A stretch of DNA of 51,805 nt, filler included, from Basidiobolus ranarum (lineage: Eukaryota), in assembly GCA_040143965.1 (NCBI GenBank). It is 3 parts of 3 records of this genome, joined end to end, with 100 filler letters (N's around TTAATTAATTAA, not from the genome) between each part and the next. Parts side by side here need not be neighbours in the genome. Positions count along the whole stretch, not along the records: positions 17,328 to 34,527 come from JASJQH010000312.1; 2 more parts are not named here. One strand, 5' to 3'. Position 1 is the stretch's first letter. Every line of letters starts with the position of its first letter. A program made the position numbers and the translations under genes. Below are positions 17,228 through 51,181 of this stretch, one piece after another. The notes under the pieces were generated by a model. The model was not told the DNA's origin, did no database searches, and saw only the letters and a list, made by a program, of their open reading frames with translations.

Positions 17228-17327
17228 NNNNNNNNNNNNNNNNNNNNNNNNNNNNNNNNNNNNNNNNNNNNTTAATTAATTAANNNNNNNNNNNNNNNNN
17301 NNNNNNNNNNNNNNNNNNNNNNNNNNN
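17228..17327. other. Artificial contig linker (N44-TTAATTAATTAA-N44)
   Basis: 100-nt N run with a central six-frame-stop spacer, identical in design to 34528-34627. Confidence 0.97.
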
Positions 17328-29087: not shown

Positions 29088-29558
29088 TCAATCCAGCATT
29101 TGCCCATTTAAAATTAGACTCTTCATTGGTGAAGGTGGTCGGTCTCTTGACTTTGAAAAGTTCCTCTGGGGTGACATTTTCATGGAGATACTTCGTTTGG
29201 GAAACGTGGGTGGAGATAGCGGCAATGATTCACTGTTCATAGTGCTCGTGATGCCACCATATTCTGCACCTTCAACCAAAGGCCCGGCATCGGGAAAAGA
29301 GAATCTTCGGAATTGGGACGGGATCTGGGGCCGGCTCTTGGGAGAATTGGCAATATTTGTTGGGTTCCAGGAAGTGTTTTTGGGCAGCGTTCCGGAGTTA
29401 GTCAATGGTGATGTGGCTAATTGTGTGGCTGTTGGTGAGGTAGGCGGGACCCCAAATGTCCCTGAGTTCCAACTAAAACCGCTTCCGCTTATAGATGGTG
29501 TGCGCTTGCGACTGGGGATAGTAAGTGGTTGAGGACGGTTGGTGGTTGGTGAACTCAT
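29088..29558 (-). CDS. Intronless Ser/Pro/Thr-rich disordered protein (156 aa), function unknown
   Basis: Clean ATG ORF with higher GC than its flanks. It has many SP/TP and basic-x-S sites (RKRTPS, RRFSF, KRSIS) and ends RPPSPMKSLILNGQMLD. Confidence 0.72.
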   Translation of the reverse strand: MSSPTTNRPQPLTIPSRKRTPSISGSGFSWNSGTFGVPPTSPTATQLATSPLTNSGTLPKNTSWNPTNIANSPKSRPQIPSQFRRFSFPDAGPLVEGAEYGGITSTMNSESLPLSPPTFPKRSISMKMSPQRNFSKSRDRPPSPMKSLILNGQMLD

Positions 29559-30798
29559 ACTTTGTATTTAGGAGAGAGTAAAGAAGTGGAGGCACTATGT
29601 TGCGGATGAGCTATACGTTTGTTAATAAAGAAGGCGCAGAGTAAACAATGAACGTGGAGGATATACTTGTAACAATTAACTCAGAGGTATGATTGCAATA
29701 GTTATTTAAGATCAAAAAGGTTCTGTCCCTCAGAACTTTTTGCTGGCTATTTAACCAAATCGACTGGCGCCAAGTCACTTGATTAATTGGCCAGCTCATT
29801 CAGTCCAAATCTCAACTCAATAGCTTAGGCCAACACGAATGATGACTCTCGAATTTTCAAGTCACACCTCACCAATCAACCCCTTTATGTGAAACTATAA
29901 GAGAGCTGGCATCCCTTATTGTGTCTTACTAATTTGTTGGAATCTCTAAATTGTTTAATGGCTCAAAACCACAGATAATAATCTATTGTTTATATGGATT
30001 ACTTTGGCAGACGAGGTGAGATGGCATTCCGCTTCAACCACATTACAAGGTTTCAAGGCTCCTTCCTTAAGCCAATCAAAAGCATGTACCAAAATACTCT
30101 ATCTAAAATAGGAATCTCTGTCATAATGATCTCGACTGTACATCAAATACCTTCACATTGTCTTTGATTTACACATCACCATGAGCATGTATAACAGGGA
30201 TCAGGCGGGTTATATGGATAATGTTGGAATTTAAACGCATAGTAAAGAAGTGACCTTAGAATATGGATATGAGAACCTTCCCAATAAATTATTAGACTAG
30301 CTTTGAATACAGATATATTATTAAACTCTGATATTACTCATCATAGCAATAAAATAAATCTCACCTTGCATATATCAGTCAGTGGTGTGATGTTATTAGT
30401 AGGTATGAGTCAAAAATTATCATAGGGGTAGCTACAGACACAAAAAAATTGTAGGCTCGACTTAGGCTTGGATTGCACAATCTACCCATCACAATCTATG
30501 GTATTAACTGTATTGTTTGCATTATTGGATAATTTAATATAAAATTTATCAACTATTCTGCAACTATGTTTTGATAGAGTTCAATTTCTTGAAGAAGTAC
30601 TGTATTGTAAATACTGATTATGAAGTCTCGGTGCATATGATAACTGACACCTTAGTTACTCTTTAAATGAATCTCTAATAACCATGCCAATATTATTCAG
30701 AGCAACAACAGTTGCTGGGAAGTAAGCTCAACCACGCCTATTATACTCCAGGATCTTAGATGCTACTACAGAGAAACTGGCGGAGATCAAATATCTCC

Positions 30799-31758
30799 AT
30801 CAGATAAGTATTATTTATATGCGTAAATAATTGATACCATAATGTGGAGAGTAGGGCTTTAACTGGTAAAAAAATGAAACAAGCATGTCTGAGCCTTAAA
30901 TCTTGTAATGATATACAATACAAAACGAGTCAGATACTATTTGAAGAGAGAACCTAACCAAAAGGTTCGTTCTCTAATTATATCACTTAAGAAATATAAA
31001 TTATGATTTTTTAGATGCTATGATGATACCATAATAAGGATCTATGAAGTTTTTGGACTTGGGGCACCCTTACCCTAATCAGATTTCTGAAGCTAACTCA
31101 TACCTCCCTAGCCACTATCACACATGTCCTGGTTGTGGAGAGACTTAAAATTATAATGAATATCATATATACTCCGCAGGTATCACAACAAGTAAACTGA
31201 ACCTTTACAGAGACCATTTTTAATAAAATAAAAAGTCACTAAACTACTTTTTCCAATGTTTACCACATACCTCCATCTGATAAAGCTTGTGCTCAGTTAT
31301 GAGATGACAATGATGATGAAATACTGGATTTAGAGCTCCTTAAGTACTTAAATATTAAACCAACATACTCTTATTTTTCTTTATAGTATGTTATCGCTAG
31401 ATTTGAACAGCACAGCATCCCTGCCTTAGGAATCATTTTTCATATTTTACCACTTGCTATTGGTTTTAGTTTTATCAGATGGATCTTTCTGTTACGTTTT
31501 CCATCTTAATCAGATTTCGGATTGTAGTAACGCGAGAAAACCGGTTAATTATCAGATGACCTGATTGGCTTTGTGTAAATTATGATAGAATTGATTTGTC
31601 AATAAGCCATTGGATCTGATTGCGACAGTATTCATATATGGAGATACCCACTAGATATTCCACAATTGAGGTCAAACGCAGCAACTATCAGATCGATCTA
31701 AAGAATCACTACCCCTCGAATTGGGGACGTGATTCAAATTATTGAGTGGCTATATAAA
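30799..31758 (+). promoter_or_regulatory. Promoter with clustered ATCWGATAA (iron-responsive GATA repressor type) sites and a TATA box
   Basis: Perfect ATCWGATAA at 30799-30807 (+), 31275-31283 (+), 31472-31480 (-) and 31549-31557 (-). ATCTGAT near-matches at ~31076, 31507, 31614 and 31685. CCAAT (reverse) at ~31564 and TATATAAA at 31751-31758. Confidence 0.65.
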
Positions 31759-31841
31759 CCAGAGTTTCACTCGTAAGAACAAGAGTTTTACCAATTAGTC
31801 CTTTTCATACAATATATCTTATAATTTCAAAGATCAATAAT

Positions 31842-33023
31842 ATGCAAAGTGCAAAGCTCACAGTCAAAAATTTCAGTGCCTTTTCTTCAAAGTACGTATC
31901 TCGAGCTGTATCCCAAAAAGTAAACAAACAATTTCATCGACATATGGTGTCAAAAACGAATGATGTCCACGCTGCTGCTATGAATAATCTTTCCCTGGAA
32001 ATGGAACAACCTATTGAGCCTTTTAAGCTGCCTTGTCGTGGTGAATACAACGTTCTATTAAATACCTTTTATCGCCAGCAACTACCTGCTTGTTTGACCT
32101 CCTTCACATCAGAGGAAGGAAAACGGTTTTTTAAAGAAAGTTTGTGTCAAGGATATGCTGAAGGCTATTTTAACTTAGTCGGTAACTTCACTACTCAATC
32201 AGAACCTCATTGTAAGTCAGTCTTCCTATTTATAGTGTTGAAAATTGTATTGATTTTTGTTCATTCTTAGATTGTGGCCCTAGTTCATTAGCTATGGTTT
32301 TAAACGCTATGGGTATTGACCCTAAGAAACGTTGGAAAGGAAACTGGAGATGGTAAGTTGAAATATGATAAATGAGTTACAAACACAAGCTTATTTATTT
32401 TGATACTTTAGGTACAGTGAAGAACTGTTAGAGGGTTTTAGCCCTTCCGGAAGAGTTCAACGTAGTGGAGTTAATTTCTCTGAATTTGGAGGTAATATAT
32501 GCTAGCAAATTGATGACAAGTTTTCTACATTTTCTAACTAAATTTCCTCGCTCAGACTTAGCTAAAAAGCATTGCCACGTTGTAGCTAAAATGGCCAGTG
32601 AGGTGACATTGAGCGAATTTGTTGAGGACCTCAAACGAGTATGTTCCTCAGATACAGAGCATATTGTCATCTCCTTTAATCGTCGAGGCCTGGACCAGGT
32701 AGGAGAGGGCCATTTCTCTCCAATCGGAGGTTACAATGTCGATCGTCAACAAGCGTTGATTATGGACGTAACTAGGTAAACATCCACGACTAGTAATTAT
32801 ATCGTCTTTTCATGTGTTGCAAATGACTTACCCTGGTTTTAGGTCCAAATATCCAAGTTACTATGCTTCCGTAGAACGTGTCTTCAACTCTATGTGCGAG
32901 GTGGATAAGCACACTGGGCTCTCTCGTGGCTATTTTATTTTAAAATCAAATAGTGATACTCCCAAACATACATATATGCATCATGAGATTCCCCACTTCG
33001 CACCTGAAGCGGTCACCATGTAA
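31842..33023 (+). CDS. Phytochelatin synthase family protein (catalytic domain only, ~310 aa); exons 31842-32211, 32271-32352, 32412-32491, 32556-32775, 32843-33023
   Basis: Motifs FYRQQLP, EGKRFFKE, TQSEPHYCGPSSLAMVLNA (Cys), DPKKRWKGNWRWYSEELL, QVGEGHFSPIGGY (His), LIMDVTRSKYP (Asp) and TGLSRGY. All four introns are GT-AG and in frame. Confidence 0.92.
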
Positions 33024-34527
33024 ATTTTTCCAACGTTATGTTGATCTTTCCCAATCTTGTTTCATACTCTAATTCCCATCACCACACCACATCACATCTA
33101 TAGAATGTGGACTTGTAACATACATATTTCAGCACTCCATTCACACTTCAAATAAATTTCAAATGTTTACGGAGGTAAAATTTCAATGAGAATAATATGT
33201 ATGGGTTCCATTTTCGATTGTAGATTGTCTTTCTACCTCGACATTTTAGCCCAAGAGTATCGGGTATTATACGGGTAAATCTATCTGATAAAATGAAATT
33301 TTTTCTTTCTAACAGCTTCTCTTTTACTCTATCCATTCCGAATTTATCTGATTCGTCCACATCAGGTTAGAATAGTGGTTACACCCGTCAAATCACGAGA
33401 ATATAAACACGTGGATTTGGCATCAGATATCCATCTCTTTCCTACAGTCATAGAGATATCCGATATTTTCCTCAAACAGTATTGAGACGATTCCCCTTTA
33501 GGAATATCTGATCCGGTCCAGGTACCTTTGTACTCCAGATGAACTCCCCTGTTTCAGATGAGTTATTGCGGATTTGCTGTGGTGGGCCAATAGTGTCCTT
33601 GAAATTTTCACTGAGGTCAGTGTATACTTGTTTAAAGTTAAGCAGATTTTAGGGCATAGCGATGATTCTGACAATTATCATACCTAATTGTAGATGGAAA
33701 TACCGGAATACATGTATTTGGTTCACGAATAATTTGATGAATTATCATTGAACATTGGTCTAGATCTTTGAACATAATGGTGGGTTCAAAATGAATTATT
33801 TGTTAGATTAGCAATCTATTCAGAATTTAGGTGTTGCATTATATCGAGACTGTTGAGCAAAGAGGATGGGTTTTCCAAGTAGTTAGCGCATAAGTTATTA
33901 GTACTTCTAGTGATTACCGAGAATACAAGTCACATCCACTACTTACTATGTAGGGATCAACACATTTTTTGAGTTTGCTCAATGATGACATTGAAATGGA
34001 GCAGGGAATATGTAACAAGTGGTAATAGTAGTAATTGAACAAGTTGTCGAAGTTAGCATAGTCTAAACACCTATATAGTCATATATAGCTTAGTATTTAG
34101 TTATTCTATATTGAACTAAGATATTACCTATTGTTCTCAATTGGAATTTACTTGGAATATTTTACCAACCTTCTCAATCGGAGTTTACTTAGAGCTGTTA
34201 GCACAAGTTTGAAAAAATCTATATATCTGAGAATTTCAAAGTTGATAAAAATATTTTAAGCTTTGCGCACATGTTCCTAGGACCTTCCTTAACACATTTT
34301 ACACGTTTTTTTGTTTATATCTTGACAAAACTATAAATGTCAACTTTCTGCTCAATAAATCAATAAGTGAAAACCACCAATTCGAATAGTTCTCCAAACC
34401 ACTTCCAACAAGCTCTCAAAATACTTCAACAACATCATCCTTTACCACATTGATAATTCAAGAGAGAAAAGATGCTAAGGTGAGCTTTTTATATTTCGAA
34501 GCCTTTCTTGTTTGTATAATGTGTTCA

Positions 34528-34627
34528 NNNNNNNNNNNNNNNNNNNNNNNNNNNNNNNNNNNNNNNNNNNNTTAATTAATTAANNNNNNNNNNNNNNNNN
34601 NNNNNNNNNNNNNNNNNNNNNNNNNNN
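34528..34627. other. Artificial contig linker (N44-TTAATTAATTAA-N44)
   Basis: 100-nt N run with a six-frame-stop spacer at 34572-34583. Confidence 0.97.
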
Positions 34628-35612
34628 GGCGTAACGTGGGTCGTACACGATGAATATTGCCAGTAGTCCCAGTCCTATAACGTATATACTGATGATGGCT
34701 GGGTCTGTCCATTCGTACTTGGATCCTCCCCAATTGGTAGGAATCAGGATACAGATGACACCGGCTGCCAATAATAACGTGCCAATCCAATCCACTCGTT
34801 TAATTTTGCTCAAGAAGGTTCCTGGGGTGCGATCAGCATCGAGGAAGTAACCGATAACAAAAAGAGTTACAACAGCAAGTGGAAGTTTAATGTAAAATGC
34901 CCATCTCCAGGTCAAATTATCGGCAAGAGCACCTCCCAAAAGAGGTCCCGTAATTGAGGCAAGAGCAAAGACACCTGCCAGAATACCCATATACTTTCCT
35001 CTATCACGAAGTGGGAATGTGTCTAATAGAGAGATGTAGAAAAGGAAGCATTAGAAAATCAAGAATAGTGACAATACCGGAAGGGTAAATTTTACCTGAA
35101 ATAATAATGAAAGACAGAGAGTAGGTACCGCCACCACCAATGCCGGTGAATGCTCGAGACAAGATCAACATCGTCATGTTCTGCGAAACACCACATAGAA
35201 CTGTACCAACGATAAAGATACAGATTGCGCCAATTAATACAATCTTTCTACCGAAAAGAGTAGCCAATTTTCCATACAATGGATGTAGGATGGTCATACT
35301 GAGAAGGTAGCTGGTACCAACCCAGGAGATTGAATCCATTGCTTCGAACTCATTAGCAATATGTGATAGACAGGTGGCAACAATAGTGTCGTCGATGGCG
35401 CCAAGAAAGAAAGTTAGTGCAAGGCTAGAAAGTTATCGGGTTTAGTGAAGTGAGGAATGTGAAGGATGTTTCTGAAGTATGAATACTAACCCTATAAATA
35501 GAGCAATCAATTTACGGTATGACATCTCTTTTTCGATTACACCGACATCTTGATTTTCCAGCGACTTATCCAAATCCTTGAGTTCAAGAGCGGAAGGGGA
35601 TTTCTCGGACAT
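34628..35612 (-). CDS. MFS drug:H+ antiporter (DHA2, EmrB/QacA-like), 3' half lost in the gap
   Basis: Motifs FLGAIDDTIVATCL, SWVGTSYLL, PLYGKLATLFGRK, RAFTGIGGGG, GPLLGGALADNLTWRWAFYI and RVDWIG. ATG at 35612, with two introns. Confidence 0.9.
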
Positions 35613-42053: not shown

Positions 42054-45000
42054 CTATTTCCGTTTCTTCCCACGACTGGATTTACCTGTTGAGGAGCGCT
42101 TGCTTTTAGTTGTGGTACTTTTTGATGTCTGTCCTCCGCCAACTTTCATTGGGCAATCATTCGCAAAGTGACCTTTCTGAACAATGAATCTGAGTAAGCA
42201 CAATTCCTTCGGATTTTACCTGTTAGTCATGATTTACCTTGTTGCAATTGTAACAGCTGTTACCACCTGATGTCTGTTTACGTGTTGAGCCACTAGGCTG
42301 AGGACAATCTCTTCCAAAATGGCCAGACTAAAAATCCATTGTAAATAATAGGCTTATGGTGGACTTGTACTACACGGGTGTATGATGATTATTTCTATAC
42401 CTGATTGCATTTGTAGCATACACCTGAGATCCCAGCAGACGAGTTACTTGTATTTCCCCCAGGAATACCACAATCATCTTCAACCCATTGAAAGAAAGTG
42501 CATCGTCGAATGGATTTGGTGCATGTAAAAAATCTCTTGCCTTTGTTGGGTCCATCTTTGGAGACTGTCTTCATAACCCCCAGCAGACCGCAGCCACATT
42601 TTGGTTTGTTCGGATTTGGAGTGTCACTCGACATATCACTATCGAATTGCTATTTTCAAAAGTCAACACTGTAGCATGAAAGCTAAATGAATACACTCGT
42701 ACAGGAAACACTTACATTAGTCAACATAGACCAAAATCCATTATCCTCTGTCCCATGATTGAAAGCATCAGCACGCTCTGAGCTTACAGTCACCGTGGGC
42801 AATGATGGCACTTCATCACTCCACTGGAAGAAATCGCACCCTTGACCTTGGGGCTTTGAACAACCATAGAACTGTCTACCAGTGTTTGGTCCTTCTTTAC
42901 GAACAGTTCTAAGTGCGGAATGATCGCCACAGGAACATTTAGGAGTACTGGAGTCACCACCAAAAGTGTTATGTAGAGAGGTGCTGGAACCCATATCGCG
43001 ATTGCTTCCTTGATTGTTGGGGAATTGTGTGGGATTCCAACTATTTTGGGATTCATTTAGAGTGATCGATGTTGATCTACTAGAGCCTGATGTCTTTGAT
43101 ATAGAATAGTCAATAAAATATGGTGGCGAAGTCCATTAATGGTACGTAAGTGGATCCCATACCATGGATGAGGAATTTTCAACCCATTGAAAGAAATCGC
43201 ATCTATTGTCATCTTGGGGCTTGGAACAACAGAAGAATTGTTTCCCTTGATTAGCACCCTCTTTCCTGACTGTTCTATGTGCACTTGGTAAGCCACAATG
43301 ACAGGAAGGAACTGCTACTCCGTCTGGGAGGGGTGAATAGTTAAATTGAGTATTTCCTCCTCTTCCCCCACCATAGCCATCGTCACCACCGCCTCCTCCT
43401 CCCCCTCCATTACTCTATATGATTTTGAAAAGATATTGTTAGTAGTAGCCTAAAAATTAGACAATATGACGAATATACCCTTAGTGCTCGATCAGGATCT
43501 TCGGGAAGATGGCCAAAATGCTTAGCCAAAGCCTGATCCATTAGGAAATCGTTAGCCTCGAAACTCAAAAGACATGCAAAATTTTTAAATACCTGTTCCA
43601 GCTTGAAGCACTGATCGTTACTTTTGATGAAGACGTCTCGATACATCCCAACACCTCGCCTGATGACAATCTCTTTAGTTTGCAATCCCTCACAAATCTT
43701 TTTCATATTAATTTCCATCTTAGAATTAAGAGCATGGAAGTAAGTACCAACTCACAATTGAAAAGAGATTCAAAGTCAACTGGATTTACCTCTCTACGAA
43801 GAAATGGTTTCGAGAGTGACATCTCAAAATCAATCATATCATATCCCTCTACAAGTGCAATTCCTAGGGTCGAGGGAACAAAGAAGTTTTCTTCCTTAAA
43901 AGCATACCCACGGTCCAAAACTTTCTTGATATGCTCATGGATGGTAGCATCAGTACCTAGATGAGAAGCATTAGTCAAGCGCCTGGTGAACAGAAATTTA
44001 AGCCATCAATCATTTACCTATTCCATTTTTATCCATGACCGAAATCAGATCGGCTTCGGTTAGCAACGAAGGGGGACTGGTTTTCCCTTCGGACATTTCC
44101 AAACTATCCGGCATAAACTGCTCACCTTCCGAAAACACTGGAATGGTGTTTCCACTCCAGCGATCGTATGGATAGACCTCCAGGTAATTTCTAGCGATGA
44201 TCATCAAGCCTAGAAGGGTAGTGGTAAGCAATGTGCAATGTAGAATGAAAGAACTCAAGAGGTATCTCACCTTTGGTTGTAAAGATTTCATCGGCAATAC
44301 TAATTTCGACGACAGTCTCGTGACCCTTGGCATTCTCTGAGCAGCAGGCCAGGAATCTTCTAACAATAAACTCATAAATCTTTTTCTCCTCTCCAGTCAA
44401 ATTTCCTGCCCAAGCTGTAGGATGGATGGGTGGATGGGCCTTGTCATTATTTTTCCCTTTTCGAGGAAAGTTGAATTCTCCAGCTACAAGTCTATGTGGA
44501 ATAACTCATTAGAAAAGTTGACTATGACCAATTAAACGGGGTTGTTAATCGGCTACCTTCTAGCATATGCGCCCCATTGAGGGTCACTAGTCTGTTTTTC
44601 AATTAACGGCATCAGCTGGAAATTGGTTTCGAATTGATCCGTCTCTGTTCTTGGATAACTAATGAATCCACGGTTGTACAGGCTTTCAGCAACCTGGGTT
44701 ATCAACATGTATCATTAATGTATAATTCCTTGTGTGGATGAGTAGTAGCCGTACCGTCATTATTCGATCCGAGGATATTTTGAGGAAACGGGTACCAGAT
44801 TTCTGGAGTTCAACGGTAGTGAGTGGCAGTGGCTTCCTATAAGGATATTCGTTAATAATTTAGGCGAAATCCCGACATCTCCGTATTAATAAACCTACCA
44901 TTTACTGGTGGGTTTCGACTTTACAGAAGTAACCGTGGCAATTGAGTTCTCAACACATCTCTCATAGAGCACAAGACAAATCAATTGATCATATAAACAT

Positions 45001-46186
45001 GACCTCTTCCAATTGAACTTTGCAACTCCATCGTCTCGGTTGACCGAGACTTCGATCTTCCAAAAATCCTCTGGTACAAAGTTCTCTACTCTCAAGAACT
45101 GGTCGACAATAAACCCAAGTGTAGGAAACTGGCATGGCCCTAAGATTGAACGTTCAGATCAGCATGACTCTATGTTGATTCTACTAAGGTTTACTTACCG
45201 TAACTGATTAGTTTTTGATCGAGTTCGTGAAATTTTGGTGTGAGCTTGAGTGTTTGAAATCGGGTAAAAGCAGCCCCAATTCTCAAATCCAATTCTGTTC
45301 GTGCATCAACCGCATCCACTTGTCTGATGTCCAAGTTCATTGGATTTTGACACGCCAAGTGAATTTCTCTGTAGTGGTAGATTACGTTAATCTGATAGTG
45401 TATTGGAAATAAGGTAGACAACATCCAAACAAGATAATTGAAACCTCTCTCACCTTGTCATAACTACTGAGAATTTGGCCCTTAACACACGTACTCTACT
45501 GTTAACCTTACGACAAACCTCTACAATCTCACTACCAATGTTCTCACCCTCCCTATCACAATCGGTCCAGATCATCAGTGTTGAAGCACCGCGTACTTCC
45601 TGTTCAAGATTCGACACTATATCTTTGAAATCCTATGGATCAGATGAATGTTCAGTTTAGGAGAACTCGACATAAAATATTTCTGGAATTTCCACGAGGG
45701 AACTAATATATACCGGATTTACTGTCTTGTATACTGGAGCTTCAAATAAGGAAAGAGGTGAGCAAGAATACCACTTTTTATGACTGGGTCCAAAGTCCAA
45801 AGACATCAAATGTCCTAGTAACGAAGTCATAGTAAACTGGCATAATTCTCCATTATATTTGTATTGAAAATCGAAATTTTTGCAATATTTGTTTCTTCCA
45901 TTTCTCTAAATGTCCATAAAAATAAGTGCAAATAAACAGTCAATGAATACAACTTTCTAAATAACATGGGTATACTTTAAGGAACAATATAGAAACCAAA
46001 AAGGGTATCAAGAAGAAAATGAAGGTGTTGGTGGAAAGTAAATAACTGAACCTCTTAACAGACAAAAGGAAGGTTGCAAAGTGAATGAAGTGGTAGATGA
46101 CTTACGGTACGCGCGGCTCCGTTGGACAAAATCTGAGAAATACTTTTAGCTATGGATGGCTTTTCAGCGACACACAATACTTTCAT
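42054..46186 (-). CDS. TOP3: DNA topoisomerase III alpha with 3 zf-GRF and 2 CCHC zinc knuckles, multi-exon
   Basis: Motifs [52 protein letters not shown], the active-site [18 protein letters not shown] and GIGTDAT. The C-terminus has CxCG...GPNxGR/KxF..C...CxFFQW repeats and CYKC/CYNC..GHF..C. Confidence 0.96.
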
Positions 46187-47801: not shown

Positions 47802-49690
47802 ATTTACTGATGATATGAAACACAATTCTACATCCCAAACACGAGTTCTATATATATGTTATGAATGTTAATGTGTTATTTGAAGCTCTTGATCTTGAAT
47901 TCTTATCATAAAGAAATTGATTTTACATCAACTCTATCCTTAGTAACCTTAAATAAACTAAGGTTTAGATAGCCATATTCCATCAGGTCTATGTATCTGT
48001 ATATATGTTTCTTTTGTATATATGTACAACCTGGGTAGTATGAAAGTCTAGAAGAGTTAATCACCTGTTGTGGGTCTATCACTATTGACTGGTGTATCTA
48101 TTCTATAAAACCTCTGTACGAGGCAACATTAGTTTTTATTTAGAATTGGAGATAGAAAGGAAAGAGTGGACCAAATGAAAATATGACCCACTACCTTCTT
48201 CAGCATTATTATACGTGGCTTTTACTCGACTGCGCTTAGCATGAGCGAATAGTGTAATTTGCACTAGAACAAAAGTGAGCTTAGTGATAAAATTCTTGCA
48301 AGCTAACAGTAAAAGTATGAACTAGCAATCGAAACTGTCAACTGCTTTGTCCTTGAAATAAATTTAAGGATTAAGGTATACAGATTTAACCTAGTAGCAA
48401 GTTCTATATATGTAATACCGAATAGAGGTGTGAAGAAATCAAACTTCATGTCAGCTGTCTACAGAAAGACATAATCTCGGTTAAAGAGTACATCCTGGTA
48501 CACCTTAGAGAGGAGATTGTTATTGTTGCGTGTTATGGGTTGCCTCTAAGTATTGCTTGACTAAACCTTGAAGAATAAGAAAGTAAGAATTTAGATCAGT
48601 CAATTGTACTACATGCTTAAAAATCTAAACCCTTTTTTTGAAGAGCACCAAGCCTGCTCGCTCAAGATGTGTCTGTAAAGAAATTAAAACCACGTTAGTA
48701 GTAGGATTGACAGTCTTAATCAGACCACTCAGAATATGTAAAAAATTGAGTCTCAACTCCAGCATAAATAATCGTATGACATTACCATATTAAGCCAGTA
48801 CGTTCTGGTCGGTATCCCTAACTGGTTTGAATGGTTTCTGATCTCCGACTTTCTGCTGAAATGATCGTTGTACTAAATTTTTTGGTCACAAGGCTCGTAA
48901 TTTAACCAACGGTTACCCCAACACATCTTAGGTGATGGATATGGACTCGTTGCCGAAGTACCGCTTTCTGCTCTTCAGCACGTTATCAAACTCGGAGGGA
49001 AATGGAATCTTCAATATTCTCACTGTTCATTCTCTCATCAGACTTGGATAGAGAATTCGTCGCGGCCAGGTATGATCGCGTAGAGAATCAAAGACTGGCT
49101 ATTTTTTTAGACTTTGCTTTGCATGCGTTCCTCGGGGAATCTCATTATTTGTAAGAGTTTTGACCAGCTTCACAACAGAGTGATACCAATCGGCATTGGC
49201 CTTCTTTCACACTACACCAAGGCCAACAGGGTTGTAGTAGTTCATTTTAATCAGACCTGTTTTAACCTTTGTAGTGTCCGAGTATTTTTTAGACGTGACG
49301 TCAAAAATGCTATGATTGGACGTGATGATTTTAAGACCGAAGGTTGCTTACAAAAGTATGCACCATAAAACCCTTGGAGATACATTGGCTACCAAAATAG
49401 AAAATGGGATTAGGTTTTCTAGTCATTTACAGGACCTGATTTTTTACCATGATTTTTTTCCGTTGACAATTCCTTTTAAATCTATCGTTACTTTTAGATT
49501 AACCTATTTTTTTACTCCCAACCAAAAACTCCCTCCTGTCTTCGTAGCAATTCAGAGAACCTCAATAAGAACCAGTTTCTGTATTCTGTATTTCTTTGTA
49601 CTTCTACAATCTACCGTTTATACAGTTATACCACGTTAAATCTGTGTACTTATCTGATTAGCCCTCCAAGCACTATTCAAATTGACTATT

Positions 49691-51181
49691 ATGAGTATGA
49701 AGTTTTCTGACACTTCTTTCCTTATATTCTGAGTATTAACTTTCCTCTAAAAAAAAGCAGGGAAAGCTCCAAGTTCCGCCAACCGAAGAGGTAATCGTGG
49801 GGGAAGTAAACGTAGCAAGTCGGAAGAAGAGACGCGCTGTGTTTGCGGACAGCAACGTAAGTTTTCTTATTCTGACCTCAACGTTTCACCGTCACTTTCT
49901 TTTACTCATATTGACAGCTATAGATCACGAAGGGCTCATGATACAATGCGAATTGTGTAAAGTATGGCAACATTGTGCATGCGTTGAAATACTGGATGAA
50001 AAGGATTGTCCTGAGCAATACTTCTGTGAGCGTTGTAAACCAGAAAACCACTTATATTTACAATACTACAAAAATAATCTCAAACTAAAGTATGTTTATG
50101 TCACTTGAAGTATTTCTAAACGAATACCTCATGTTTAGCTACTTCGTGTTGGTCTAACTAACCACTTCTTTTTTCTTAGTAGTATGGTGAAAACCAGTGA
50201 ACCCCCTATAGAAAGTGAGGTTAGCACCCAACCTGATATCAAATCTACCGAAGAAGTCAAAGAGAAGCAACCCCTGGACCAAGAGGGACCAGAAACAAAT
50301 GATTTTTCCGCCTTATCAGATCGGGACGCTAATGAAGATATGAAAAGAGAAGCCCGTTCGAAACGGACAAAGAATATTTCAAATCGTTCACAGAGTCCCA
50401 TTTCCTCCAGTAGAAAAGCCAAAGATTCCGAAAGTGACGAGGAATATCTTACTCGTGGAGAACGTAAAAAAAAGAAAACCAACTCTAAATCTGAAGATCG
50501 CGAATACACCATTTCAAACTCGAGAAGTAGAAAACGAGATTCAAAGAGCTGTGACTATGGAGATGACGAGACCCCCAATAAAATTCAAGAGGAAGCTCAT
50601 ATTCGTAAGCCAAATAGAAAAGAGAAAAAAGGTAGGTTTTTGACATGTACTTCCTATTTATATATCTATACTAACGTCAAATTATTCAATTTTTAGAGCA
50701 TGTTAAAGAGTACAGCAGCAGTCACGAGCTTGAAACACCTCAGGTACACACCATATCTAATGATGAGGCTATTTCCAATGGCAAGCGCAAGAAACCTCGG
50801 AAAATTTCCCCGGAGCAGCCTCGAAACTCTACCCGCTCAAAAGAAAACGGTCAAGCTACACTTGATAACAGACGTAACTATATTCGTCACCTTTACTTGT
50901 GATACACATGCTTAAATGTCATTTTTCTATTAGGCTCTCCCCCCGTGCGAATCAAGAGCGTCAGCAATCGTATGTCTTTTCATGACATGAGCAAGCGTAC
51001 GAAATATATTTTTGACTGTATAACTCGTATTCAGATTTCTATGGCGGAAAAAGCCAAGAAACAAAATTCCTCCAGCTCTGTGACCAATGGCAAAGGAGGT
51101 GAGCCAACAACGATGGAGATGGTCGAAGGTCTTACCAGAAAGCTAGTTCAATTCCAAGAGCTGTATGGTGAAATGCGGTGA
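49691..51181 (+). CDS. CTI6: PHD-finger protein, Cti6-like (Rpd3L-associated), multi-exon
   Basis: PHD finger ETRCVCGQQ|HHEGLMIQCELCKVWQHCACV...YFCERCKPENH. The C-terminus RMSFHDMSKRTKYIFDCITRIQISMA...MEMVEGLTRKLVQFQELYG resembles Cti6. The start is inferred as a 4-nt exon ATGA (49691-49694). Confidence 0.78.

Follow-up and report, generated by a model that had tools for sequence, protein, structure and literature searches.

In a 51,805-nt stretch of DNA from Basidiobolus ranarum (assembly GCA_040143965.1; hereafter the window), a five-exon gene at positions 31842-33023 on the plus strand encodes a half-size protein of the phytochelatin synthase (PCS) family that has the catalytic domain only, preceded by an N-terminal extension. 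We consider it probable, if not assured, that this nuclear gene encodes an enzyme from a divergent subclade of Basidiobolus PCS paralogs that leans toward hydrolysis, carries a presequence, and is under iron control through GATA-type sites. The coding sequence of 933 nt is interrupted by four introns of 59, 59, 64, and 67 nt, all with GT..AG borders, and the 310-residue product is letter for letter identical to the NCBI entry "hypothetical protein K7432_006783 [Basidiobolus ranarum]", here referred to as P0001. The predicted gene model rests on splice-site logic, on this identity with the NCBI model, and on conservation among paralogs. Four of the five exon translations separately match the PCS family PF05023, and exon 1 alone does so over residues 76-122 with an E value of 6.6e-10 (exon coordinates in Table 1).

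Members of PF05023 are papain-like gamma-glutamylcysteine dipeptidyl (trans)peptidases. The family profile is matched by P0001 over its full length (profile positions 1-210 of 210, residues 76-281) with 234.2 bits at a cut-off of 24.9. The intact Cys-His-Asp triad of a PCS-like enzyme, which a sequence-only reading of this DNA had recognized, is made up of Cys125, His230, and Asp248, and together with the oxyanion-hole Gln119 these residues align with invariant residues of the family, including in the alignment with Nostoc Alr0975. Chains of Alr0975 were the sole relatives in a phmmer search against the Protein Data Bank (PDB; E 8e-21, residues 83-287). An AlphaFold2 (AF2) model built from 138 homologs has a mean predicted local distance difference test (pLDDT) value of 82.4, with the domain mostly above 90, and in a Foldseek search with this model the nine best matches were all Alr0975 chains (E 1e-20 to 1e-18), with target-normalized template modeling (TM) scores of 0.86-0.93 and root-mean-square deviations of 1.6-3.1 Å. 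Alr0975 of Nostoc sp. PCC 7120 (NsPCS; PDB 2BTW, 2BU3, 6TH5) thus resembles P0001 in being domain-only, in its triad, and, judged from the AF2 model, in its fold, but it is bacterial, has neither introns nor a presequence-like N-terminal extension, and is only 26-28% identical to P0001.

The catalytic domain, which closes with SRGY, is followed by a tail of 29 residues that contains no cysteine. As the mark of a canonical eukaryotic PCS we took a C-terminal region of ~200-300 residues with several cysteines, represented in plants by PF09328. No match to PF09328 was found in P0001, none of 15 translations of downstream open reading frames (ORFs) matched a PCS family, and a tblastn search with the C-terminal regions (at least 150 residues) of 187 long homologs gave nothing better than E 0.047 in the window and nothing downstream of the gene, while the N-domain control matched the PCS gene at E 5e-35. 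These ORF, Pfam, and tblastn searches brought up neither a hidden C-terminal exon nor a pseudogenized C-terminal domain. Because a PEA-x-x-M/L motif at the C-terminal end, common to P0001 and its paralogs P0002 and P0003, is kept up to the stop codon in all three, a genuine protein terminus is favored. The sequence-only reading was thus right that there is no Cys-rich C-terminal domain, the tail having no Cys and the downstream DNA no exon candidate, and right that the tail after SRGY is short, although its count of ~25 residues was too low.

P0001 shares a number of unusual residues with P0002, P0003, and P0004, the other members of the subclade. We mapped these proteins onto the numbering of Arabidopsis thaliana AtPCS1 after PMC3855540, the accessible text of which assigns Gln50, Glu52, Tyr55, Arg152, Gln157, Phe184, Lys185, and Tyr186 to the cavity for the second substrate. 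The equivalents of Gln50, Glu52, Cys56, Arg152, Gln157, His162, Asp180, Arg183, Lys185, and Tyr186 are kept in all four proteins, and at the Tyr55 position three members have Tyr and one has Phe. P0001 keeps seven of the eight acceptor-cavity residues, the exception being the Phe184 position, which is Ser in all four subclade members and which in 301 other homologs is Phe (208), Tyr (76), or Gly (13) but never Ser. The mutation F184A left AtPCS1 with very low activity according to the accessible part of PMC3855540. In P0001 this Ser lies within DVTRSKYP (residues 248-255), which, like LEGF at residues 157-160, had been picked out beforehand as a departure from the usual family motif and is indeed present. 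The Cys91 position, which is Cys in 268 of the 301 other homologs, is Phe throughout the subclade, and the Cys109 position, Cys in 257 of them, is D/E/E/A across the four members (Asp in P0001). Taking Cys90/91, Cys109, and Cys113 to be the numbers of the conserved N-domain cysteines in AtPCS1, as we presume, P0001 has Gly at the Cys90 position and keeps only the Cys113 equivalent (Cys184). Eight of the positions conserved in 80% or more of 91 other rows are changed in all four subclade members: R79Q, A123H/S/Y, L137M, C160F, C178D/E/A, T226V/A, L247M, and L264V.

In a mechanism modeled on the PCS family, Cys125, activated by His230 and Asp248 and with Gln119 as the oxyanion hole, would attack the Cys-Gly bond of glutathione or of a glutathione conjugate; glycine would depart, leaving a gamma-Glu-Cys thioester on the enzyme, and the acyl group would then be passed either to water, yielding gamma-Glu-Cys, or to a second glutathione, yielding the phytochelatin PC2. 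From the pattern of kept and changed residues we infer that the subclade retains acyl-enzyme formation but has changed in its acceptor pocket and in the sensing of metals. A deglycylating role is favored because P0001 has no Cys-rich C-terminal part, has lost the Cys91 and Cys109 equivalents, and carries Ser in place of Phe184, and the enzyme would more probably carry out metal-independent deglycylation of glutathione or its conjugates, with at most weak phytochelatin synthesis, than act as a Cd-activated polymerase.

Alternatively, P0001 may be an ordinary short-form PCS that makes phytochelatins on metal exposure like the canonical paralogs, in which case its substitutions would reflect neutral drift after duplication. 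All catalytic residues and all but one of the acceptor-cavity residues are kept, as this alternative would have it, and the N-terminal domain of AtPCS1 was reportedly found by Romanyuk in 2006 to be sufficient for core catalysis. Moreover, the short rice OsPCS2 made phytochelatins in yeast (PMC12899622), and a cyanobacterial half-size PCS is reported to be Cd-responsive in the accessible text of PMC7411734. The rice result speaks against our proposal for the activity: because PCS consisting of the N-domain only can make phytochelatins, a shift to hydrolysis is not established. Neutral drift, however, fits poorly with the long stem of the subclade (0.37 substitutions per site) and with changes that fall at highly conserved positions, among them the Ser without a counterpart in the other homologs and the lost Cys91 and Cys109 equivalents. 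In addition, the canonical P0009 and P0010, with ARFKYP, LEGC, and a Cys-bearing tail, are encoded in the same genome, which fits a division of labor. We therefore regard an ordinary short-form PCS as possible but rather unlikely.

The short architecture is not confined to this gene. Our homolog searches covered proteins of 170-543 residues (164 matches, best 120 listed) and of 544-2000 residues (57 matches). Among the matches listed, six are Basidiobolus PCS, all of 256-315 residues (P0001, P0002, P0009, and P0010 from B. ranarum; P0003 and P0004 from B. meristosporus), and there is no long-form Basidiobolus PCS among the matches listed in either size range. As to the proposed check for a second, full-length PCS, no long Basidiobolus form is among the matches listed; the gene is not a lone one, having further short paralogs. 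Tail lengths of the 299 mappable homologs are bimodal, with 99 below 100 residues, some of these being partial records, and 185 at 150-400 residues. In a first maximum-likelihood tree of 109 domain sequences (113 chosen, four partial ones dropped; unnamed representatives thinned to every third), all 23 Zoopagomycota rows (15 Kickxellomycotina, two Zoopagomycotina, and the six Basidiobolus proteins) have tails of 6-108 residues, those of Mortierellomycota, Mucorales, Umbelopsis, and Endogonales PCS are 210-300 residues long, and 12 short "PCS-like" proteins of Mucorales, which form a clade apart, have tails of 4-43 residues. The short architecture looks like a lineage trait that predates the Basidiobolus duplications rather than a peculiarity of a single gene. 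With six short Basidiobolus PCS among the matches listed and short tails the rule in the Zoopagomycota rows, the suggestion that this could be an undescribed system was overstated. Our literature search, which did not cover supplementary files, returned no publication on short PCS in Zoopagomycota or on any PCS in Basidiobolus, and in it the wording "half-size" was used only for cyanobacterial enzymes and for algal or rice short isoforms; the accessible part of one survey scores Entomophthoromycotina, represented by one genome, as being without PCS (PMC4410428). As a separate observation, P0005 and P0008 from Dispira and Tieghemiomyces (Dimargaritales) have Cys-rich stretches with CC pairs in a long N-terminal extension and not at the C-terminus, which might reflect either the relocation of a metal-binding region or an error in the gene models.

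In a 76-row tree, the six Basidiobolus PCS form one clade (100/99 by ultrafast bootstrap (UFBoot)/Shimodaira-Hasegawa-like approximate likelihood ratio test (SH-aLRT)) that splits into P0009 plus P0010 and the subclade P0001-P0004 (100/100). Within this subclade, the closest partner of P0001 is P0004, its ortholog from B. meristosporus (100/92). P0009 (315 residues) and P0010 (309 residues), the sister group, are similar to P0001 in length class and in their presequence-like N-terminus, but they are only ~50% identical to it and keep ARFKYP, LEGC, the Cys109 equivalent, and a three-cysteine tail (GSCG..CGSTGSCH). The Mucorales "PCS-like" proteins (e.g. P0100 and P0107) share with P0001 a size of ~300 residues, a short tail, a presequence-like N-terminus, and the motifs KGNWRW and IMDV; at the Phe184 position they too are without an aromatic residue, having Gly instead. 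They differ from P0001 in that their catalytic Cys is replaced by Gly, in that the Cys91 and Cys109 equivalents are kept, and in their placement with Mucorales PCS in the best tree; the substitution of the catalytic Cys in these proteins is also described in the accessible text of PMC4410428. The placement of the subclade is open to one objection, in that the approximately unbiased (AU) test does not reject joining it with this Cys-less Mucorales clade (p 0.315, log-likelihood difference 7.7), both being long branches. Because of this result, the exact origin of the subclade is less certain than the bootstraps suggest.

Horizontal transfer from bacteria, an origin suggested for many genes of Basidiobolus, would account for a half size like that of cyanobacterial enzymes, and the domain-only architecture of P0001 does resemble that of Alr0975. 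A bacterial origin is, however, effectively refuted by the four spliceosomal GT..AG introns, by an identity of 50-60% to fungal PCS versus 26-28% to Alr0975, and by the nesting of P0001 in a clade of Zoopagomycota, Mucoromycota, and Mortierellomycota, and we find it barely conceivable. In terms of sequence and tree, P0001 most probably descends from a fungal PCS through loss of the C-terminal region and not from the cyanobacterial branch.

The N-terminal extension comprises 75 residues, the catalytic domain beginning at residue 76. Residues 1-40 contain eight Lys/Arg, two His, and nine Ser/Thr but no Asp or Glu, in line with the presequence-like N-terminus claimed from the sequence, and the proposed cleavage-like block (R33-H34-M35-V36-S37) and alternative starts (Met35 and Met47) are likewise present, together with an additional Met54. 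The extension of P0001 is identical at 43 of 75 positions to that of P0002 (57%) and at 36 of 69 to that of P0003 (52%), the corresponding values for the domain being 169/208 and 173/211. P0001 and P0002 both begin with Met-Gln-Ser, and the block RHMVSKT is invariant in P0001-P0003. Upstream of the gene lies a TATA box, TATATAAA, which would act as the core promoter, and Met1 is the first ATG past this box, with A at -3. The identity among paralogs, the shared Met-Gln-Ser start, RHMVSKT, and the position of the first ATG relative to the TATA box argue that the extension is coding. Translation would most likely start from Met1, with the first 35-53 residues probably forming a mitochondrial presequence comparable to that of the fission-yeast enzyme.

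The PCS of fission yeast, Schizosaccharomyces pombe, has a long C-terminal region. P0001 is unlike this enzyme (Pcs1/SPAC3H1.10) in that it ends 29 residues past the domain, carries Ser in the position of Phe184, and has no counterparts of Cys91 and Cys109. The two are alike in combining the catalytic domain with an N-terminal extension, which in S. pombe has predicted mitochondrial targeting (accessible part of PMC4410428). The same text describes N-terminal extensions with predicted mitochondrial targeting sequences in fungal PCS and reports that S. pombe Pcs1-GFP co-localizes with MitoTracker, which contradicts the view, taken over in the sequence-only reading, that the fission-yeast enzyme is cytosolic. 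A presequence-like extension is hence not new for a fungal PCS, and mitochondrial PCS has already been described. For Schistosoma PCS, one isoform in mitochondria and one in the cytosol have been predicted (PMC3101182); the P0001 gene differs from this case in having no intron between extension and domain. Of the 216 homologs whose extension measures 25 residues or more, 101 pass a crude rule for presequence-like composition (at least four Lys/Arg and at most one Asp/Glu in the first 30 residues).

The protein may instead be cytosolic, either because translation starts at Met54 (or at Met35 or Met47) or because the extension is a disordered linker or a regulatory tail and not a targeting signal. 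Three observations tell against a presequence in this way: AF2 leaves residues 1-70 without structure or helix (pLDDT 47-67), the hydrophobic moment of the extension is modest (0.26-0.42 in 18-residue windows; 0.68 in the best 11-residue window), and the model of the B. meristosporus ortholog P0004 starts at the Met54 equivalent and is without the extension. Similarly, A. thaliana PCS is cytoplasmic in spite of predicted signals, as stated in the accessible part of PMC4410428. With such a start in P0004, dual targeting by way of alternative starts, or a shorter form located in the cytosol, is possible. A cytosolic protein fits, on the other hand, less well with an extension that is conserved at the protein level in three paralogs and includes an invariant block, with Met1 as the first ATG past the TATA box with A at -3, with a first stretch of 40 residues rich in Lys/Arg and free of acidic residues, and with the mitochondrial PCS of fission yeast (PMC4410428, accessible part). 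On balance, we find a cytosolic protein doubtful and a mitochondrial location of P0001 plausible.

The DNA around the gene is rich in a motif associated with fungal iron regulation. ATCWGATAA occurs nine times in the window, compared with 2.40 ± 1.51 expected, and none of 100 shuffles reached nine; the core ATCWGAT occurs 29 times, compared with 13.7 ± 3.3 expected. Six of the nine ATCWGATAA copies flank the PCS gene, four of them upstream (30799, 31275, 31472, and 31549) and two downstream (33283 and 33344). For the eight ATCWGAT sites clustered upstream, the Poisson P is ~2e-9 relative to the rest of the window, where at most two sites occur per 900 bp; when the 29 sites were placed at random, none of 20,000 placements reached eight per 900 bp, and under a second-order Markov model of the 2.2 kb before the gene, 2,000 runs gave 1.25 sites on average and never more than six. 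The motif cluster is real and unusual, and the iron-type promoter of the sequence-only reading holds up as such a cluster, located at 30799-31693. We rejected an origin of the clusters in a transposon or repeat: only the short motif recurs, and the longest shared blocks are two-copy matches of 15-32 nt.

ATCWGATAA shows a 5.4-fold enrichment in front of 49 Aspergillus fumigatus genes regulated by SreA and matches the in vivo sites of the Ustilago maydis and S. pombe orthologues (PMC2610380); an in silico analysis has also called on it for a siderophore gene of Mucor (PMC9226013). Like promoters of the SreA/Fep1/Urbs1 regulon, the region upstream of the PCS gene has multiple copies of the extended motif. 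It differs from them in that the regulon, which is one of Dikarya, has known members in iron uptake, siderophore, and related genes, and that no PCS gene was found to be reported among these in the literature covered. Iron-responsive repression would be the most natural reading of this candidate GATA-site cluster, with an iron-responsive GATA factor of the SreA/Fep1 type most likely repressing the gene when iron is plentiful.

The clusters could also be bound by a factor with no role in iron regulation, for example a GATA factor of nitrogen or light responses, or a binder of palindromes, or they could serve another transcript, in which case there would be no iron link. The shared core is palindrome-like, and three of the 12 ATCWGAT sites in the two clusters are without a GATA core on either strand, which weakens the case for iron control because another factor could read such sites. 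Likewise, a simple promoter would not usually come with a second cluster past the gene, such as that at 33283-33512. In the vicinity of this second cluster, no ORF with a Pfam match was found; it may act on the PCS gene, on a transcript missing from the annotation, or on a gene past the end of the contig. A link with iron homeostasis has reportedly been published for a charophyte PCS, and our literature search returned no paper tying fungal PCS to Fep1 or SreA. S. pombe PCS was not measurable in iron and copper arrays, according to the accessible part of PMC1929147. A non-iron factor nevertheless has to contend with the fact that six of the 12 sites are perfect copies of the SreA-regulon motif (PMC2610380), with the excess of this motif over expectation in the window (nine versus 2.4), and with the position of the upstream cluster, which stops 155 bp short of the ATG and whose far end is more than 1.2 kb away from the next gene, encoded on the opposite strand. 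We rate a non-iron factor as quite possible, without preferring it to iron-responsive repression.

The promoter has further features. CCAAT-binding complex together with HapX forms the other arm of fungal iron regulation, and five CCAAT/ATTGG boxes (31459, 31564, 31609, 31720, and 31791; 31459-31795) alternate with the GATA-type sites, and two of these boxes stand immediately next to ATCWGAT cores (gacCTGATTGGc and ccATTGGATCTGATtg). A 15-nt block, TAATCAGATTTC(T/G)GA, occurs at 31076-31090 and 31507-31521 with 93% identity and is built on ATCWGAT cores that have no GATA core on either of the two strands; this block may be a distinct site type. Two more perfect ATCWGATAA copies, at 49650 and 50313 on the minus strand (49650-50321), lie beside a PHD-finger gene on another contig, the third of the window.

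Three contigs make up the window. Between them, at 17228-17327 and 34528-34627, stand two artificial linkers of the same composition (44 N, TTAATTAATTAA, 44 N), and the PCS gene is on the middle piece of exactly 17,200 bp, a length that agrees with the contig given in the record of P0001. Because the window is made of three separate contigs, gene order across the linkers is void. On its own contig, the gene has ~2.2 kb upstream and 1.5 kb downstream in which no ORF with a Pfam family match was found. An MFS transporter at 34583-35432 on the minus strand was rejected as an iron-related neighbor, since it belongs to another contig past the N-linker and its Pfam matches are the generic MFS_1 and TRI12. 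The third contig also holds ceramidase and topoisomerase III genes and others, none of them neighbors of the PCS gene; the topoisomerase III-like gene (42398-45457, minus strand) has Topoisom_bac matches followed by three GRF zinc-finger exons.

Table 1 Coordinates of the PCS gene and of features around it in the window
Feature	Position	Strand	Description
Ser/Pro-rich ORF, 159 aa, without Pfam match	29091-29567	-	Nearest upstream gene candidate; divergent, ~1.2 kb from first GATA-type site
Upstream cluster, eight ATCWGAT	30799-31693		Four perfect (30799+, 31275+, 31472-, 31549-); 155-1043 bp before ATG
TATA box	31751-31758	+	TATATAAA; 84-91 bp before ATG; no ATG between box and Met1
Exon 1	31842-32211	+	Met1; N-terminal extension, codons 1-75 (31842-32066); PCS domain start; oxyanion-hole Gln119 (32196-32198)
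Exon 2	32271-32352	+	Catalytic Cys125 (32273-32275)
Exon 3	32412-32491	+	LEGF (157-160) replacing usual L-D/E-C-C; Phe160 (32437-32439)
Exon 4	32556-32775	+	Arg220, Gln225, His230 (32711-32713), Asp248 (32765-32767)
Exon 5	32843-33023	+	Ser252 (32844-32846; AtPCS1 Phe184 position), Lys253, Tyr254; domain end; 29-residue Cys-free tail; TAA stop
Second cluster, four ATCWGAT	33283-33512		Two perfect (33283+, 33344-); 260-490 bp past stop; Poisson P ~2e-6
Artificial linker	34528-34627		End of 17,200-bp contig with the gene; sequence past linker is another contig

PCS enzymes are usually treated as metal-activated, two-domain detoxification enzymes. In the tree rows covered, Zoopagomycota, including Basidiobolus, carry catalytic-domain-sized PCS only, and the subclade described here combines the loss of cysteines thought to sense metals with a unique acceptor-pocket Ser and, for the P0001 gene, with a promoter bearing iron-regulator-type motifs. 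It is tempting to speculate that P0001-P0004 have been neofunctionalized as a whole, being derepressed in iron starvation through an SreA-type factor, imported into mitochondria, and cleaving glutathione or glutathione-bound species to gamma-Glu-Cys independently of metals, thereby coupling the mitochondrial thiol pool with iron and Fe-S metabolism. In this complete form we consider the scenario improbable; if true, however, iron-starvation control and mitochondrial glutathione cleavage would constitute a regulatory and functional link that has not been described for any PCS-family enzyme. If expression of the gene is not iron-dependent, P0001 would simply be one more short PCS paralog, and the value of the analysis would be mainly corrective, in that mitochondrial targeting of fungal PCS is already known and that apparent neighbor genes in the window come from other contigs. 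If expression is iron-dependent, the gene would offer an entry into the long-suspected roles of PCS outside detoxification, in glutathione turnover and in essential-metal homeostasis.

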